From IMG/VR virus record IMGVR_UViG_2541047441_000021: a DNA stretch of 5,806 bases, one strand, 5' to 3'. A program made the translations under genes and the position numbers. Origin of the DNA: a virus (lineage: Duplodnaviria > Heunggongvirae > Uroviricota > Caudoviricetes). The notes beneath the pieces were generated by a model, which saw nothing but the letters and a program-made list of their open reading frames with translations, did no database searches and was not told the DNA's origin. Positions 1-5,806 of this stretch are shown here, in pieces. How positions within the stretch are numbered: the stretch's first letter is position 1; each line of letters starts with the position of its first letter.

Positions 1-96
1 GAGGGATAGCAATCCCCCAATTTGAGGGATAGCAATCCCCCAATTTGAGGGATGTTTTATCCCTCGTTTTAGGGGATTTTCCCTCGTTTTGAGGGA
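1..96. repeat. ori iterons of the lambdoid replication origin, lying inside the O coding sequence: four full palindromic ~17-bp iterons (TCCCnnnnnnnnnGGGA type) at about 13-29, 36-52, 60-76, 80-96, plus a half iteron at 1-7
   Basis: Exact 23-bp tandem repeat gagggatagcaatcccccaattt at 1-23 and 24-46; repeated TCCC...GGGA palindromes; embedded in the O reading frame exactly as ori-lambda is embedded in O. Confidence 0.8.
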
Positions 97-445
97 TACA
101 CCATTCTGAGATGTTTTTATTTGGTCCAAACATGCCGCCTTGCTGCTTGATAATATTCATTCTGACGAGTTCTAACTTGGCTTCATTGCACCGTTTGACA
201 GGTAACTTTGTAATCTCGCTAAGTTGAGAATCGGTGATTCTGTCCATTGGTTTATTCCACCCATAGGTTTTACGCAGAATGGCAAGCAGCACTTTAAACT
301 GTCGCTTGGTCAGATCTGCGCCTGAATAAGCCTCAATCAGCATATTTGATAGTCTGGCGTAACCATCATCGAGATCTGCCACATTACGCTCCTGTTCGGC
401 AAAGTTACCTCTGCCGAAGTTGAGTATTTTTGCTGTATTTGTCAT
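1..445 (-). CDS. O: Replication initiation protein O, N-terminal part (gene runs off the left edge of the window)
   Basis: Minus-strand ATG at 445-443; translation MTNTAKILNFGRGNFAEQERNVADLDDGYARLSNMLIEAYSGADLTKRQFKVLLAILRKTYGWNKPMDRITDSQLSEITKLPVKRCNEAKLELVRMNIIKQQGGMFGPNKNISEWCIPQNEGKSPKTRDK... matches my recollection of lambda O; iterons inside the frame. Confidence 0.9.
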   Translation of the reverse strand, partial: MTNTAKILNFGRGNFAEQERNVADLDDGYARLSNMLIEAYSGADLTKRQFKVLLAILRKTYGWNKPMDRITDSQLSEITKLPVKRCNEAKLELVRMNIIKQQGGMFGPNKNISEWCIPQNEGKSPKTRDKTSLKLGDCYPSNWGIAIP

Positions 446-456
446 AATGACTCCTG

Positions 457-532
457 TGGATTGATCCAGTAATTCCCTCAGAATTGCATATCAATTTGCT
501 TAGAGTCCCCGGCGGCCACCGGGGATTTTTTC
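457..532 (+). ncRNA. oop: oop-like antisense RNA, overlapping the 3' end of cII and ending at an intrinsic terminator (hairpin 507-524 ccccggcggccaccgggg, then T-tract 526-532)
   Basis: Plus-strand sequence ggattgatccagtaat...cccggcggccaccggggattttttc resembles lambda oop RNA as I recall it (GUUGAUAGAUCCAGUAAU...GCCGCCGGGCGUUUUUU); antisense to the cII 3' end as in lambda; possible pO -10 cataat at 443-448. Exact 5' end is uncertain. Confidence 0.6.
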
Positions 533-774
533 TTTGTGATTCCATCCAATGCATACTTAAAAGCCCTGCTAATCGGACTGATGTCTGATGCCATTCCGAA
601 AGCACACAAGACCGAAGCAATAAACCGCCAGTCCGTTCTGCTTATCTTCGATTCATGACAGCCAATCATCTTTGCCAGACCGCGCTGGGTAAGCGTTGAC
701 AGGTTGATGAGTAAATCAGTTTCAGCGCGATCAATTTCTCGCTGTGTTGGCTTGCTGTAGCTTGCTTGTGCCAT
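478..774 (-). CDS. cII: CII-family transcriptional activator (lysogeny establishment)
   Basis: 98-aa ORF; C-terminus ...KKKSPVAAGDSKQIDMQF parallels lambda CII ...NKKRPAATERSEQIQMEF; position between cro and O; TTGC-N6-TTGC lies in codons 3-7 on the opposite strand as in lambda. Confidence 0.8.
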   Translation of the reverse strand: MAQASYSKPTQREIDRAETDLLINLSTLTQRGLAKMIGCHESKISRTDWRFIASVLCAFGMASDISPISRAFKYALDGITKKKSPVAAGDSKQIDMQF

Positions 775-781
775 TTGTTAA
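752..781 (+). promoter_or_regulatory. pRE-like CII-dependent promoter: CII binding motif TTGC-N6-TTGC at 752-765, weak -10 around 775-780, reading toward cro antisense and cI
   Basis: ttgc tgtagc ttgc seen directly at 752-765 on the plus strand inside the 5' end of cII, the same arrangement as lambda pRE. Confidence 0.6.
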
Positions 782-842
782 TTTTCCTATATTGATATTG
801 AGTTATAGCGGCACACCCAATGGATTTGCCGCTGATGTTTGC

Positions 843-880
843 TCACCCGGTTAGAGGTGAAAGGCCATGATGAAAGAGCG
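843..880 (-). promoter_or_regulatory. nutR-like site: boxA-like CGCTCTTTCA (plus 871-880) and boxB-like hairpin (plus 843-860) in the cro-cII intergenic transcript
   Basis: Minus strand reads cCGCTCTTTCAtcatggcctttCACCtctaaccgGGTGag; the loop shares CUAACC with the nutL boxB at 3208-3227. Confidence 0.45.
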
Positions 881-888
881 GGTACTGC

Positions 889-1107
889 TTAGGCGGCTTT
901 GTTACTGGATGGAGGGAAAACATCATCCAAAGAACATTGGCACCCTAACTTCCTGAGGCCTTCTACGATCATTCGGCAATCGTTAAGGCCAGGAGTACGG
1001 ATATTCAGCTCATAGTTGGCGATGCGGGATTGCCCCCAACCAATTGCCGAAGCTAGTACAGCTTGCGAAACTCCGATTTTTTTTCGCTGCTGGGCAATTT
1101 TGTTCAT
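889..1107 (-). CDS. cro: Cro-like HTH repressor (XRE/Cro family)
   Basis: 72 aa from the ATG at 1107-1105, preceded by GGGAGA (revcomp of 1111-1116); sequence MNKIAQQRKKIGVSQAVLASAIGWGQSRIANYELNIRTPGLNDCRMIVEGLRKLGCQCSLDDVF..NKAA has an HTH pattern; divergent from cI across an operator region. The ORF track's longer start at 1146 would overlap the operators. Confidence 0.75.
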   Translation of the reverse strand: MNKIAQQRKKIGVSQAVLASAIGWGQSRIANYELNIRTPGLNDCRMIVEGLRKLGCQCSLDDVFPPSSNKAA

Positions 1108-1215
1108 TGCGGTCTCCCTAGCATTAATCACACACCCATTACACACAATTTGTGATTAACAGTCAACCTCAATTCGTGTACAGAGTTCAATCACGTTGCG
1201 TGTTACATTTAAGGG
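1108..1215. promoter_or_regulatory. OR region: divergent pR (minus strand, -35 TTGACT = revcomp of 1161-1166, -10 TGTAAT = revcomp of 1138-1143, 17-bp spacer) and pRM, with operator-like imperfect palindromes built on ATCACA/TGTGAT half-sites (about 1124-1140, 1143-1159, 1188-1205)
   Basis: Sequence ttaatcacacacccattacacacaatttgtgattaac and caatcacgttgcgtgttacat lies between divergent cro and cI; the same half-sites recur in OL (3096-3137). Confidence 0.55.
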
Positions 1216-1863
1216 ATGAAAACGATGCATGAAATTATCGGGGAAAGGATCAAGTCCCTTAGAGAAGCTAAAGGACTTAGCCAGGCTCAATTGGCCAAGC
1301 TTTGCGGCTGGGCTGCGCCTTCACGCCTGGGGAACTACGAGTTAGGAACAAGAAAGGTTAGCGCGGATGACGCGCTGGTTCTTGGGGCGGCACTCGGCGT
1401 ATCTCCGGCAAAAATAATGTTTGGCGAGGATTCAGACGCCGTATTTCGCCAATATGAATACCCGTTATTTTCTTCAGTGCAGGCCGGGCCATTTTCGGAG
1501 GTGGGAAGCTACACAGCCAGCGATGCAAAGGCATGGGTCCCAACGACCACAAAAGCCAGCGAAAAAGCTTTCTGGCTTGAGGTGAAGGGGCATTCAATGA
1601 CGGCGCCTCAGGGGGTTCGTCCAAGTTTTCCGGAAGGCATGCTGATACTCGTTGATCCGGCTGAGCCGGTAGAGTCTGGGGATTTCTGCGTGGCTTCTGC
1701 AAATGGTGATTCAGAGGCAACGTTCAAGAAGTATGAGAAGGATGCAGGGGTTAGTTACCTGGTACCTTTAAACCCGGCATATAGAACCCTGGATTGCGAC
1801 CATAGCTGCCGCATCATAGGCAAGGTAGTTAAGGCGCAGTGGCCTGAAGAGACGTTTGGCTGA
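1216..1863 (+). CDS. cI: CI repressor: N-terminal HTH DNA-binding domain plus C-terminal LexA/S24-like autocleavage domain
   Basis: 215-aa ORF; HTH region [24 protein letters not shown]; Ala-Gly cleavage-type site in SSVQAGPF; catalytic Ser in KGHSMTAP and Lys in ATFKKYE. The true start may be the ATG at 1225 (AAGGGA at 1211-1216 with better spacing). Confidence 0.9.
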
Positions 1864-1985
1864 TCGGCAAGGTGTTCTGGTCGGCGCATAGCTGGTAATC
1901 CAACTTTTCCCTGTTCTTTTTATGCAAATTAATCTAATGAAATTGAAAAGATTTTTACCTATTTTGTTGGTTCAGGAGAACATAA

Positions 1986-2267
1986 ATGAGCGATAAACAA
2001 GAAGTTTCCTTAGCACATATCAATGATGTGCTGGAGTCCAAAAATTATATTGAAACTAATGCTGATGGGGTTGTAACCATCGGAACGGATAACAATGGCT
2101 ACGAAGTTTTTAACTTCGTTTTTCTCAATAGCACCCCTGTCATCGGCCATATGAATGGCGAAATCGCAGTGGCAGGAATGCAGCGCACTAAGGTTGCGTC
2201 CGTGACTTTAAGTAAACAGAAGGCCTTCGATTTCTATCAGTCCTTGAAAAGCATGTTCGAGGAATAA
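1986..2267 (+). CDS. Hypothetical small acidic soluble protein (93 aa); first gene of the accessory cassette downstream of cI
   Basis: ORF with RBS AGGAG at 1974-1978 seven nt before the ATG; AT-rich relative to cI; no family recognised by eye. Confidence 0.6.
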   Translation: MSDKQEVSLAHINDVLESKNYIETNADGVVTIGTDNNGYEVFNFVFLNSTPVIGHMNGEIAVAGMQRTKVASVTLSKQKAFDFYQSLKSMFEE

Positions 2268-2273
2268 AAGCTG

Positions 2274-2825
2274 ATGAATGCAGCTCAATCATCTTTGGAT
2301 GAGGGAAAGCTAGTAATTGCTTACTCTGATAAGAATGGCTCTACAGTAGGGCTGGAATTTTCTTCTGTAGCATCAAGCCAAGCAACGCTCTTGATGAAAG
2401 CTTGTTCTGTTGCTGCTTCAGATAAAGAAAAACGGATTGTCACATCGGTTGTGATGGATGATACTGAGATCATTCAAACAACAAGTGATGATGGAGGCGA
2501 CGACATGGATAAGCGATTAGCAGTTCTTGAAGCTGAAGTTGCGCACATCAAGAGCAGCATGGCAGGAATTAAAGAGGATACCCGGAAAATATCTTCTGAT
2601 TCTACTGACGCCAAAAGAGACACCGCTGTACTTTTACAGAAGAGCCTGGATTTTGATGCTTCATTATCTAAGAAACCATCGGTTGACTACTTTGAAGCTA
2701 AATTTTCCGCTTTGGAAACCAAGATAGCAGATGTAAAAGTATGGATGCTCGGGGTTCTCTTGGCCTCGCTTGCTATGCCAACTATATTTTTCCTAATAAA
2801 CTTGTACCTTAAGAAAGGTCAGTAA
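2274..2825 (+). CDS. Hypothetical coiled-coil protein with a single C-terminal transmembrane anchor (183 aa); second gene of the accessory cassette
   Basis: Starts 6 nt after the upstream stop, so probably translationally coupled; acidic linker TTSDDGGDDMD; heptad-like segment KRLAVLEAEVAHIKSSMAGIKEDTRK; hydrophobic C-terminus VWMLGVLLASLAMPTIFFLINLYL followed by KKGQ; followed by an intrinsic terminator. Confidence 0.65.
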   Translation: MNAAQSSLDEGKLVIAYSDKNGSTVGLEFSSVASSQATLLMKACSVAASDKEKRIVTSVVMDDTEIIQTTSDDGGDDMDKRLAVLEAEVAHIKSSMAGIKEDTRKISSDSTDAKRDTAVLLQKSLDFDASLSKKPSVDYFEAKFSALETKIADVKVWMLGVLLASLAMPTIFFLINLYLKKGQ

Positions 2826-2834
2826 TTTAGCAAA

Positions 2835-2858
2835 TCCGGCCACCGAGCCGGGTTTTTT
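2835..2858 (+). terminator. Intrinsic terminator ending the cI-cassette transcription unit
   Basis: GC hairpin CCGGC-caccga-GCCGG (2836-2851) followed by TTTTTT (2853-2858), 10 nt after the stop of the 183-aa gene. Confidence 0.7.
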
Positions 2859-3069
2859 ATTGCCCGCCGATCACTATCAGGACAGCACCTGCCCGCCGGT
2901 CCAAACTATTGATTAAATTACTATAATTCTTAATACAACTCCCATATCCCGCCATCTCGCCACCACCCCATTCGCTCGTTTTTCGAACTTTTCAGCACCC
3001 ATCCTGCTGTTGCCACCGACTTAAGTAAGCAAAACCATCGCGGGTAAAACTATTTACACAAAAAAATCA

Positions 3070-3139
3070 TACACATAACGTGTCACACCTTTATTTTACA
3101 CATTTTGTGATTGACCATTAAATCACAATATGTGACTAT
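3070..3139 (+). promoter_or_regulatory. OL/pL: -35 TTGACC (3111-3116), 17-bp spacer, -10 GACTAT (3134-3139); operator-like palindromes at about 3070-3088, 3096-3112 (TTACACATTTTGTGATT) and 3121-3137 (AATCACAATATGTGACT)
   Basis: Consensus-like sigma-70 elements seen directly, interleaved with the same ATCACA/TGTGAT half-sites as OR; located upstream of nutL and N. Confidence 0.65.
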
Positions 3140-3187
3140 CATTTCCATCAGCAGGACGCTGAGACGCCACAAGGAACAGATTGGCAG

Positions 3188-3227
3188 GCTCTTTAACATC
3201 GACGAACTCTCAACCTAACCGTTGAGA
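3188..3227 (+). promoter_or_regulatory. nutL: boxA (GCTCTTTAACA, 3188-3198) and boxB hairpin (TCTCAAC-ctaacc-GTTGAGA, 3208-3227)
   Basis: boxA consensus-like sequence and a perfect 7-bp stem hairpin in the N leader; I recall this boxB as the phage-21 type. Confidence 0.7.
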
Positions 3228-3337
3228 CCAGAACTTGAGTGGTTTTGGGGATGGCGCGAATTGCAGCTGCAAGACAGCGATCGAGAAGATAAACACCTCG
3301 ACGCGTCATGCGCCAAAGCCACTTAAAGGAGACCATC

Positions 3338-3610
3338 ATGGTAACCATTGTCTGGAAAGAATCCAAAGGTACGGCAAAAAGCCGCTACAAAGCTCGCAGA
3401 GCAGAACTTATTGCCGAGCGACGCAGTAATGAAGCACTGGCGCGAAAAATTGCGCTAAAGCTCTCTGGTTGCGTCAGAGCAGACAAAGCAGCATCACTCG
3501 GAAGCCTTCGCTGCAAGAAGGCAGATGAATGCAGTGGAAGTATTTGCCTGCCAAACGTAGCCATTTACGCGGCAGGCTACCGGAAATCAAAACAACTGAC
3601 GGCGAGATGA
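3338..3610 (+). CDS. N: N-family transcription antitermination protein (phage-21-type arginine-rich motif)
   Basis: ATG at 3338 with RBS AAGGAG at 3326-3331; N-terminal MVTIVWKESKGTAKSRYKARRAELIAERR is an arginine-rich boxB-binding motif that I recall as the phage 21 N peptide; downstream of pL/nutL. The ORF track's start at 3308 lacks an RBS. Confidence 0.85.
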   Translation: MVTIVWKESKGTAKSRYKARRAELIAERRSNEALARKIALKLSGCVRADKAASLGSLRCKKADECSGSICLPNVAIYAAGYRKSKQLTAR

Positions 3611-3626
3611 TAAATTAATTTGCTAA

Positions 3627-4208
3627 TTACTTGTTTTTGCCATGCTTATCCTGAGCGATAAGTTCATCCATAAGACTGTCTTTCTTCCCAGCAAACCTAA
3701 TGTAGCACTCATTTCTATAGCGTTCCGGGATAACAAAACGGTCGATTTCAGGATATCCAGTAGCAGAAGGTACCCGAATAAGAAGCCCTTTTTCGAGCAA
3801 TGAGATTGCTTCAGGGCTTCCCTTTTCTGTCTTTAGCTGGTTATTAGCGGCTACAGCGAATGCCAAATACGCTCTTTCTCCAAGAGTTAACGAATCAAAC
3901 AAATCTTGCACGTATTTCTCTTCTTTAGATTTGCGCTTCTGAGCAGCGAATATCTCAATTCTTTCAGTCACAGCGTGATAAGCGGAATTAACAACGCCGT
4001 TAAGCACATAGCTAACGCAAAACAACAGGATGTAATACATCCAGTAATGAGGAAGGATTTCTGGATTATGCAGGTTTATCCATTCTTTTACGCTTACAGG
4101 CATAACAATAATCAATATAATCAGGATGATTAGCATATGAATCAACTGTTTAAGTGTCATTCCTTGCAGGAAAAAATGCATTAGTTCCTGCCACCATGAG
4201 TTGTTCAT
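3627..4208 (-). CDS. sieB: SieB-like superinfection exclusion membrane protein (convergent with N)
   Basis: 193-aa ORF; N-terminal hydrophobic segments (LIHMLIILIILIIVMPV, YWMYYILLFCVSYVL); size, position between N and ea10, and orientation opposite to the pL operon all match lambda sieB as I recall it. Confidence 0.7.
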   Translation of the reverse strand: MNNSWWQELMHFFLQGMTLKQLIHMLIILIILIIVMPVSVKEWINLHNPEILPHYWMYYILLFCVSYVLNGVVNSAYHAVTERIEIFAAQKRKSKEEKYVQDLFDSLTLGERAYLAFAVAANNQLKTEKGSPEAISLLEKGLLIRVPSATGYPEIDRFVIPERYRNECYIRFAGKKDSLMDELIAQDKHGKNK

Positions 4209-4224
4209 CGGCGTTTCTCTTTTG

Positions 4225-4278
4225 CTCTCTGTAGGGGTGAATAGAGTTTATCCGATTTCTCGCTGTAGGGGTACACGA
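4225..4278. repeat. Direct repeat CTC(n)CTGTAGGGGT(G/A) (4225-4240 and 4257-4278) just upstream of the sieB start
   Basis: ctctctgtaggggtga and tctcgctgtaggggtaca seen directly, about 34 bp apart. Confidence 0.5.
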
Positions 4279-4332
4279 GAACCACCGAGCCTGATGTGGT
4301 TAAAAGACAGGCATACTAATAAACACTGCACT

Positions 4333-4360
4333 GTGTATTCATTCCAACGAGTGAATACAC
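4333..4360. repeat. Perfect 9-bp inverted repeat GTGTATTCA-N10-TGAATACAC (stem-loop or dimeric protein-binding site)
   Basis: Seen directly at 4333-4341 and 4352-4360. Confidence 0.55.
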
Positions 4361-4422
4361 TGAGCAATGTCGCTCGTAACTAAACAGGAGCCGACTTGTT
4401 CTGATTATTGGAAATCTTCTTT

Positions 4423-4449
4423 GCCCTCCAATGTGAGGGCGATTTTTTA
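4423..4449 (+). terminator. Intrinsic terminator on the pL-direction strand upstream of ea10 (tL2-like)
   Basis: Hairpin GCCCTC-caatgt-GAGGGC (4423-4440) followed by gATTTTTTAT. Confidence 0.65.
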
Positions 4450-4468
4450 TCTGTGAGGATATGAACAG

Positions 4469-4837
4469 ATGTCAAACATCAAAAAATACATCATTGATTA
4501 CGACTGGAAAGCATCAATAGAAATTGAAATCGACCATGACGTAATGACAGAGGAAAAACTTCACCAGATTAATAATTTCTGGTCAGACTCTGAATACCGA
4601 CTCAATAAACACGGCTCTGTATTAAATGCTGTATTAATCATGCTGGCGCAACATGCTCTGCTTATAGCAATTTCAAGCGACTTAAATGCATATGGTGTTG
4701 TGTGTGAGTTCGACTGGAATGATGGAAATGGTCAGGAAGGATGGCCTTCAATGGATGGTAGCGAAGGAATAAGAATTACCGATATCGATACATCAGGAAT
4801 ATTTGATTCAGATGATATGACTATCAAGGCCGCCTGA
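4469..4837 (+). CDS. ea10: Ea10-like protein (lambda early-left gene; putative ssDNA-binding function)
   Basis: 122-aa ORF, the size I recall for lambda Ea10; RBS GAGGA 9 nt upstream; immediately upstream of cIII as in lambda. The protein sequence itself is not recalled, so identity rests on size and synteny. Confidence 0.6.
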   Translation: MSNIKKYIIDYDWKASIEIEIDHDVMTEEKLHQINNFWSDSEYRLNKHGSVLNAVLIMLAQHALLIAISSDLNAYGVVCEFDWNDGNGQEGWPSMDGSEGIRITDIDTSGIFDSDDMTIKAA

Positions 4838-4909
4838 GTGCGGCTTTACCGCATACCAATAACGCTTCACTCGAGGCGTTTTTCGTTATGTATAAATAAG
4901 GAGCACACC

Positions 4910-5074
4910 ATGCAATATGCCATTGCAGGGTGGCCTGTTGCTGGCTGCCCTTCCGAATCTTTACTTGAACGAATCACCCGTAAATTACGTGACGGATGGA
5001 AACGCCTTATCGACATACCTAATCAGCCAGGAGTCCCAAAGAATGGATCAAACACTTATGGCTATCCAGACTAA
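4910..5074 (+). CDS. cIII: CIII, inhibitor of FtsH-mediated CII degradation
   Basis: Translation [54 protein letters not shown] (54 aa) matches lambda CIII as I recall it; RBS AAGGAG at 4898-4903. The ORF-track start at 4838 is an upstream in-frame extension. Confidence 0.95.
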   Translation: MQYAIAGWPVAGCPSESLLERITRKLRDGWKRLIDIPNQPGVPKNGSNTYGYPD

Positions 5075-5186
5075 ATTCACTATCGCCACTTTTATTGGCG
5101 ATGAAAAGATGTTTCGTGAAGCTGTCGACGCTTATAAAAAATGGATATTAATGCTGAAACTGAGATCAAGCAAAAGCATTCACTAA
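5043..5186 (+). CDS. kil: Kil, host-killing/FtsZ-inhibiting small protein; overlaps the 3' end of cIII
   Basis: Translation [47 protein letters not shown] (47 aa) matches lambda Kil as I recall it; 32-nt overlap with cIII as in lambda. Confidence 0.9.
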
Positions 5187-5261
5187 CCCCATTTCCTGTT
5201 TTCCTAATCAGCCTGGCATTTCGCGGGCGATATTTTCACAGCCATTTTCAGGAGTTCAGCC

Positions 5262-5558
5262 ATGAACGCTTATTACATTCAGGATCGTCTTGAGGCTCAG
5301 AGCTGGGCGCGTCACTACCAGCAGATCGCCCGTGAAGAGAAAGAGGCAGAACTGGCAGACGACATGGAAAAAGGCCTGCCCCAGCACCTGTTTGAATCGC
5401 TATGCATCGATCATTTGCAACGCCACGGGGCCAGCAAAAAAGCCATTACCCGTGCGTTTGATGACGATGTTGAGTTTCAGGAACGCATGGCAGAACACAT
5501 CCGGTACATGGTTGAAACCATTGCTCACCACCAGGTTGATATTGATTCAGAGGTATAA
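5262..5558 (+). CDS. gam: Gam (short form), RecBCD inhibitor
   Basis: 98-aa translation [98 protein letters not shown] is near-identical to lambda GamS as I recall it; RBS CAGGAG. Confidence 0.95.
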
Positions 5559-5563
5559 AACGG

Positions 5564-5806
5564 ATGAGTACAGCACTCGCAACGCTGGCTGGGAAGCTGG
5601 CTGAACGTGTCGGCATGGATTCTGTCGACCCACAGGAACTGATCACCACTCTTCGCCAGACGGCATTTAAAGGTGATGCCAGCGATGCGCAGTTCATCGC
5701 ATTGTGATCGTCGCCAACCAGTACGGCCTTAATCCGTGGACGAAAGAAATTTACGCCTTCCCTGATAAGCAGAACGGCATCGTTCCGGTGGTGGGCGTTG
5801 ATGGCT
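5564..5806 (+). pseudogene. bet: bet (Red-beta recombinase) 5' part, interrupted by an apparent 1-nt deletion: frame opens MSTALATLAGKLAERVGMDSVDPQELITTLRQTAFKGDASDAQFIAL then TGA at 5705-5707; the Bet sequence continues in another frame from 5707 (IVANQYGLNPWTKEIYAFPDKQNGIVPVVGVDG) to the window edge
   Basis: Both halves match lambda Bet as I recall it but lie in different frames; the window has gcattgTGAtcgtc where lambda has GCATTACTGATCGTT. Confidence 0.8.

Follow-up and report, generated by a model that had tools for sequence, protein, structure and literature searches.

The bet gene at the right end of the window, the whole 5,806-nucleotide stretch of DNA analysed here, lacks one base relative to its homologues. 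This gap is probably a consensus or joining artefact (roughly 58% in our estimate), the base having been lost in silico and not in the cell. The gene itself is unremarkable: a lambda bet of the 933W type (Red-beta, RecT family), carried in the pL operon of a lambdoid prophage with Sp15-type immunity. An artefact is favoured over a real mutation because the gap is private, is accompanied by no private substitutions, falls on a polymorphic branch point, and has an independent artefactual counterpart in the scaffold GCA_000215165.1 (L005).

The bet reading frame starts at ATG 5564 and runs on the plus strand to 5707, giving 47 codons followed by TGA at 5705–5707. The product of codons 1–47 is identical to residues 1–47 of 933W Bet, Sp15 Bet, and lambda Red-beta (PDB 7UJL). 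The downstream frame at 5704–5806 (+) covers Bet residues 48/49–81; it reads (V)IVANQYGLNPWTKEIYAFPDKQNGIVPVVGVDG, equal to Bet 49–81, and stays open until the window end. Base-level alignment with 933W bet resulted in 257 identical positions and one gap, at which the wild-type (933W) sequence GCATTGCTGATC becomes GCATTG-TGATC in the window. The absent base opens the Leu48 codon (bet nt 142); the site of its loss lies between G5704 and T5705 (+). The earlier note had described a lambda-like frame of 47 residues ending in TGA, a continuation of Bet shifted by one base, the loss of one nucleotide within a Leu codon, and a GTG at 5704–5706 in the downstream frame, and the ORF analysis, the alignment, and the translations confirmed all of this. 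The lambda string given there, GCATTACTGATCGTT, is also correct; the nearest relatives differ from it, with GCATTGCTGATCGTC (TTG-CTG) in 933W and GCATTGTTGATCGTC (TTG-TTG) in Sp15. At position 142, 933W and lambda thus have C, and Sp15/CP-933V has T.

Judged by its sequence, the window gene belongs to the lambda Bet/RecT family (PF03837; PDB 7UJL, 8TFU, 6M9K). Window-encoded residues 1–47 and 49–81 are identical to those of lambda Bet, whereas codons 47–48 are TTA CTG in lambda and the window ORF is split into two frames. The gap lies outside any homopolymer longer than 2 nt, and no compensating indel was found in bet within the window, which stops at wild-type bet nt 243, 102 nt beyond the gap, with exo beyond its end. 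The frame is therefore disrupted relative to intact bet orthologues, and the window holds no uninterrupted ORF of ~261 codons covering the N-terminal DNA-binding domain (residues 1–177). The difference is a discrete one-base change from hundreds of near-identical homologues, and a chance pattern is excluded. A Dam site (GATC, 5706–5709, +) starts one base downstream of the gap, with T5705 in between; the other 17 of the 18 GATC sites in the window have no adjoining indel. Rfam, promoter, and terminator scans at the gap site gave nothing relevant, and the opposite strand likewise.

In a lambdoid prophage, the window corresponds to the immunity and early-left region. It carries the 5′ portion of gene O, ori iterons included (1–445, minus), cII (478–774, minus), cro (889–1107, minus), cI (1216–1863, after which two small ORFs are also listed), N (3338–3610), and sieB (3627–4208, minus). 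These are followed by ea10 (4469–4837), cIII (4910–5074), kil (5043–5186), and gam (5262–5558, +, 98 aa by the ORF list and the comparison with Sp15 and 933W), before bet itself. The cIII-kil-gam-bet order of the pL operon was confirmed, and the window ends ahead of exo. The statement in the earlier note that gam, kil, and cIII are intact was borne out: all three are identical to the 933W alleles, as is ea10. Rfam detected the cIII thermoregulator Lambda_thermo (RF01804) at 4897–4955 (+) with 88.5 bits over the full model, spanning the cIII start. Residue 37 of cIII is P in the window and L in Sp15, and residue 40 of kil is L in the window (933W type) and R in Sp15. Public annotations of kil (window 4917/5043–5186) use two alternative starts, giving 89/90 aa in VT1-Sakai and 933W, and 47 aa in RefSeq.

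In a three-way alignment, the ea10-cIII-kil-gam-bet block (4362–5806, +) equals 933W at every base except the gap. The bet of 933W (NP_049474.1) and of Sakai Sp5 shares with the window the gam–bet order and the 5-nt gam–bet spacer; 933W differs in having C at nt 142 and an intact 261-codon bet ORF that overlaps exo. There the end of bet and the start of exo share the letters ATGA, and an AAGGTGG motif precedes them. Two options had been offered for the broken frame in the earlier note, a decaying recombination module and a sequencing or assembly error. Our analysis leans to the second, and the first found no support, as this 1.4-kb block is otherwise that of functional 933W and the gap is private. 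No accompanying sign of decay, such as other disrupted genes or private substitutions, was seen, and ea10, cIII, kil, and gam are all intact.

Over its full length the window shares 99.8% identity with Sp15/VT1-Sakai/CP-933V, the Stx1 prophage of E. coli O157:H7, and the immunity region (cII, cro, cI, H0053, N, and sieB) is common to both. Its core, 452–4361, is of the Sp15 immunity type and non-homologous to 933W, and 933W alleles stand on either side of it. The window has the 933W allele at each of the seven sites that discriminate Sp15 from 933W (451, 5019, 5161, 5286, 5313, 5483, and 5590), six of which (5019–5590) fall in the 4362–5806 block. Sp15 differs from the window by T at nt 142, by the alternative allele at the six flanking sites and at 451, and by its six ori iterons. 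As 933W alleles occupy every discriminating flank site, the window prophage is distinct from the Sp15 prophage itself. This mosaic of Sp15 core and 933W flanks occurs in none of the complete E. coli genomes of RefSeq (best match 99.7%). We conclude that the prophage belongs to a lineage absent from the complete-genome, phage, IMG/VR, JGI, and GTDB-representative collections.

The ori iteron array (window 1–100) is unlike that of Sp15 and 933W, each of which has six iterons; the window array is 39 bp (two iterons) shorter. At the window start we observed a second, perfect tandem 23-bp copy of GAGGGATAGCAATCCCCCAA(TTT). The shorter O-gene iteron allele is common, with at least 120 IMG/VR contigs having it; rarer is the tandem copy, which was seen in three fetched loci (L097, L113, and L149) and also in O157 Sp1 at 98.9%. 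The O-gene iteron allele is natural. A chimeric assembly of the EDL933/Sakai prophages was an attractive explanation of the mosaic, and it was rejected on account of this natural allele; it is also disfavoured by the left 470 nt, for which the best match in O157 (Sp1) reaches just 98.9%. In a T5/A5 run within O (window 433–437, codons 5–7, minus) the window agrees with finished genomes. IMG/VR draft contigs have T6 (L097) or T4 (L160 and L165) at the same run, which would frameshift O, and these variants are probably homopolymer errors.

The gap was found in none of the close relatives. With a 60-mer across it, 4,297 bet places were retrieved in 3,171 of 5,426 complete E. coli genomes, none at 100% identity, and 50,697 phage records likewise lack the gap. 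The best matches, phage and genome alike, all have 558 bases where the window has 557. A junction 33-mer gave 0 matches in GTDB representatives, IMG/VR, and JGI metagenomes, and none of the IMG/VR contigs with the O allele or an immunity ORF of the window shares the gap. Records found by exact protein match (the 47-aa ORF, SieB, and the 214-aa product) also included no relative with it. In the 65 other bet copies of the fetched loci the patch around nt 142 is ATTGTTG (39), ATTGCTG (18), ATTACTG (7), or ATTTTG (1, L029). The ATTGTG of the window occurs in 0 of these 65, and a 66th copy, at the contig end in L005, carries it.

Full-length bet copies in loci fetched without reference to bet were intact in 49 of 50 cases. 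The sole disrupted copy of those 50, L105 (IMGVR_UViG_2534681933_000014), has lesions at bet nt 420 and 499: a G4 run is reduced to G3, and 79 nt further on an inserted T brings the frame back, the stretch in between being scrambled and containing a stop. Lesions of this kind are typical of draft error.

The gap is also the sole private change in the 5.8-kb window. No private substitution was found in 4362–5806 or in the immunity core, and the remaining differences from Sp15 are all known natural alleles (the 933W alleles and the O iteron allele). In E. coli, substitutions arise naturally some ten times as often as indels. Zero private substitutions together with one private indel therefore fit an indel-biased error process better than evolution.

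The position of the gap points in the same direction. Position 142 is a synonymous C/T site (Leu CTG/TTG) with a minor-allele frequency of 0.46, computed across 80 distinct haplotype pieces of the 1,446-position block. Only 25 of these 1,446 positions have a minor-allele frequency of at least 0.2, and nt 142 is among them, as it is among the 6 with at least 0.4. It is also one of just 4 differences between Sp15 and 933W in the 1,460 nt of bet and exo. The chance that a random mutation hits such a polymorphic site is 0.004–0.017, so a coincidence by chance (~0.4–1.7%) is small yet non-negligible.

Draft assemblies often break at this same place. The exact 47-aa string is recorded in 1,536 blocks of the assembly collection, and in 8 of the 10 places shown the gene is cut by a contig end at bet nt 141–143, while the ninth (L006) has an N-gap at bet nt 141. 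As many draft contigs (L006–L014; 1,536 blocks) end at the Leu47/Leu48 codons, this shows that the C/T (and TTA/TTG) polymorphism there between co-resident prophages is a recurrent break point of the assembly graph. The right end of the window was also considered as a graph branch; the nearest common variant is at nt 252 and not at 243/244, which made this comparison uninformative.

An independent case of the same gap, there a demonstrable error, was observed in L005, a scaffold in which two contig ends overlap by ~290 nt. Just two differences occur within this overlap: one in an A-run where one of the contigs begins, and one at nt 142, 15 nt before the other contig stops. The erring contig end reads GCATTG-TGATCGTCGCCAA, which is the string of the window with the same base missing, and the overlapping contig reads GCATTGTTGATC. 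The precise window sequence is therefore known to arise as an artefact. L005 differs from the window in the closeness of its error to a contig end (15 nt) and in having an overlapping contig that contradicts it, whereas the window has no second read-through.

A loss in silico could have come about as follows. The C/T at nt 142 differs between the bet copies of co-resident lambdoid prophages, and at this site assembly graphs branch and draft contigs halt, with nt 141 or 142 as their last base. One contig that ended at nt 141 may then have been joined end-to-end to another starting at nt 143, or reads with C and reads with T may have been merged into one consensus (flow-space or long-read). Alternatively, polishing may have been unable to choose which base to insert, or an error-prone contig end may have been used. 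Each of these routes would drop one base and leave the surrounding sequence perfect, and one of them may have acted here.

Certain observations count against an artefact. The rest of the window is error-free, including several homopolymers of 5–7 nt, which speaks against an assembly of generally poor quality from 454, Ion Torrent, or nanopore reads alone. E. coli genomes in public databases were for the most part assembled from Illumina reads with de Bruijn graphs, where an internal one-base deletion normally reflects real k-mers, and columns with mixed alleles more often yield a substitution than a deletion. The median copy number among genomes having bet is one.

These points bear on the alternative of a real deletion, by which a private frameshift of very recent date would have inactivated bet in this prophage; we regard this as possible, though we would not bet on it. 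Translation would then stop after 47 residues and the annealase would be lost with gam intact, so that Red recombination from the prophage would be abolished, a loss which the lysogen or a recA+ host would tolerate. The deposited sequence as it stands does encode a truncated Bet, and the clean remainder of the window comes from an assembly that is not obviously error-prone. Decay of prophage bet also exists elsewhere, since a fixed O157:H7 remnant beside ybhC is without the first ~113 nt, and in a Logan contig (L029) bet has lost another single base, one position upstream. A real deletion is opposed by the gap being common to no relative, by the intact state of 49 of the 50 unbiased bet copies, and by the sole private change in 5.8 kb being an indel in no run longer than 2 nt. 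Furthermore, the gap sits on a site in the top 0.4% for polymorphism, for which no biological reason can be named.

The case for a real deletion gains nothing from quasi-palindrome correction. The gap lies in the 3′ arm of a quasi-palindrome, CAGCGATGCG-N8-CGCATTG[C]TG (5680–5706, +; RNA fold and direct reading), and the deletion reduces the complementarity of the arms, making the palindrome less perfect. A templated mutation was therefore rejected. A hot spot of single-base loss, which L029 had suggested, was rejected as well: a look-up with the 214-aa product retrieves only disruptions at codons 47–48 and thus carries an ascertainment bias.

In L029 (Logan SRR30879441_48), at ~5995–6004, GCATTGTTGATC has become GCATT-TTGATC, resulting in a 47-aa ORF ending in IAF* and a 214-aa ORF, beside a YdaS/YdaT-type immunity region. 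The O157:H7 remnant beside ybhC/pectinesterase (CDCO157_0789, Xuzhou21) resembles the window in having lost the N-terminus of Bet and in being annotated as a 214-aa protein (MIVANQ...). It is unlike the window in its cause, a large deletion that fused the ninE region to about bet nt 114, and in its start, an in-frame TTG48. Remnants of this type were seen in L026, L027, and L030–L033 and are common to many O157 genomes. The 214-aa MIVANQ... protein in databases was considered as the product of the same frameshift, and this was rejected, as it mostly stems from the large O157 prophage deletion or from N-gaps.

If the deletion were real, some Bet function might still be kept by reinitiation at GTG 5704–5706 after termination at TGA 5705–5707, which we consider very unlikely. 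The products would be Bet without residues 1–47 (with Leu48 replaced by fMet) and the 47-residue N-peptide, and the coupling to exo would be restored. The GTGA overlap of stop and start (5704–5707, +) has the classic 4-nt geometry of termination–reinitiation (PMC6728339), and this candidate restart codon is the only ATG, GTG, or TTG in the downstream frame after its last stop at 5674–5676. The 214-aa version, obtained by continuing the window into 933W sequence, still matches Pfam RecT (6.6e-28). Nevertheless, the overlap was created by the deletion and is conserved nowhere, and no Shine-Dalgarno motif (GGAG/GAGG/AGGA) was found in the 20 nt upstream of the GTG (5684–5703). In E. coli, removal of the Shine-Dalgarno sequence abolished reinitiation in one of five gene pairs and cut it by 60–90% in three others (PMC6728339).

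A restart product would also be without part of the folded domain. Red-beta residues 3–169 form one folded DNA-binding and oligomerisation domain, and the first 47 residues include K36, which takes part in DNA binding and the subunit interface, and E14, which makes an inter-turn contact (PMC9512822). Pfam RecT (PF03837) spans Bet residues 24–183, so the restart product would lose 24 residues of the match. Full 933W Bet scores 115.6 bits against a gathering cutoff of 24, Bet matches PDB 7UJL at 1.8e-122, and the 47-aa fragment alone gives no Pfam match. With no Shine-Dalgarno and part of the fold lost, any product of the GTG would presumably be scarce and incomplete, and a real deletion would thus entail the loss of Bet function. 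The N-truncated product suggested in the earlier note is formally possible, but its start has no Shine-Dalgarno sequence and it would lack part of the fold.

More improbable still is that the two polypeptides, the N-peptide and Bet without residues 1–47, reassemble as a split annealase or poison the Bet filaments of a co-resident prophage. If true, such poisoning would be a dominant-negative modulator of Red recombination in poly-lysogens. A programmed −1 ribosomal frameshift at 5702–5707 would restore the bet frame, giving full-length Bet with L48V, and this is its sole supporting point. The sequence there, C ATT GTG A, contains no X XXY YYZ slippery heptamer, and the downstream structure is not significant (z = −1.26; 20 of 200 shuffles fold as well). 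Such a signal is also not conserved, every relative having an in-frame bet. Programmed frameshifting is excluded for practical purposes.

Either outcome, a private knockout or an assembly artefact, is ordinary and brings no new kind of biology. If the deletion is real, the true sequence across the gap is GCATTGTGATC, and exo would lose its coupling to bet and probably keep its own ribosome-binding site. As a further private knockout, in a phage gene that is dispensable and well understood, it would have little biological weight. If the favoured artefact holds, the real phage encodes an intact Bet with GCATTG[C/T]TGATC as the true site, and the deposited sequence is an annotation hazard. The methodological value lies in bet nt 142 being a recurrent assembly break point in poly-lysogenic E. 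coli. One-base frameshifts at sites that distinguish paralogues need a read check before a pseudogene or prophage decay is called.
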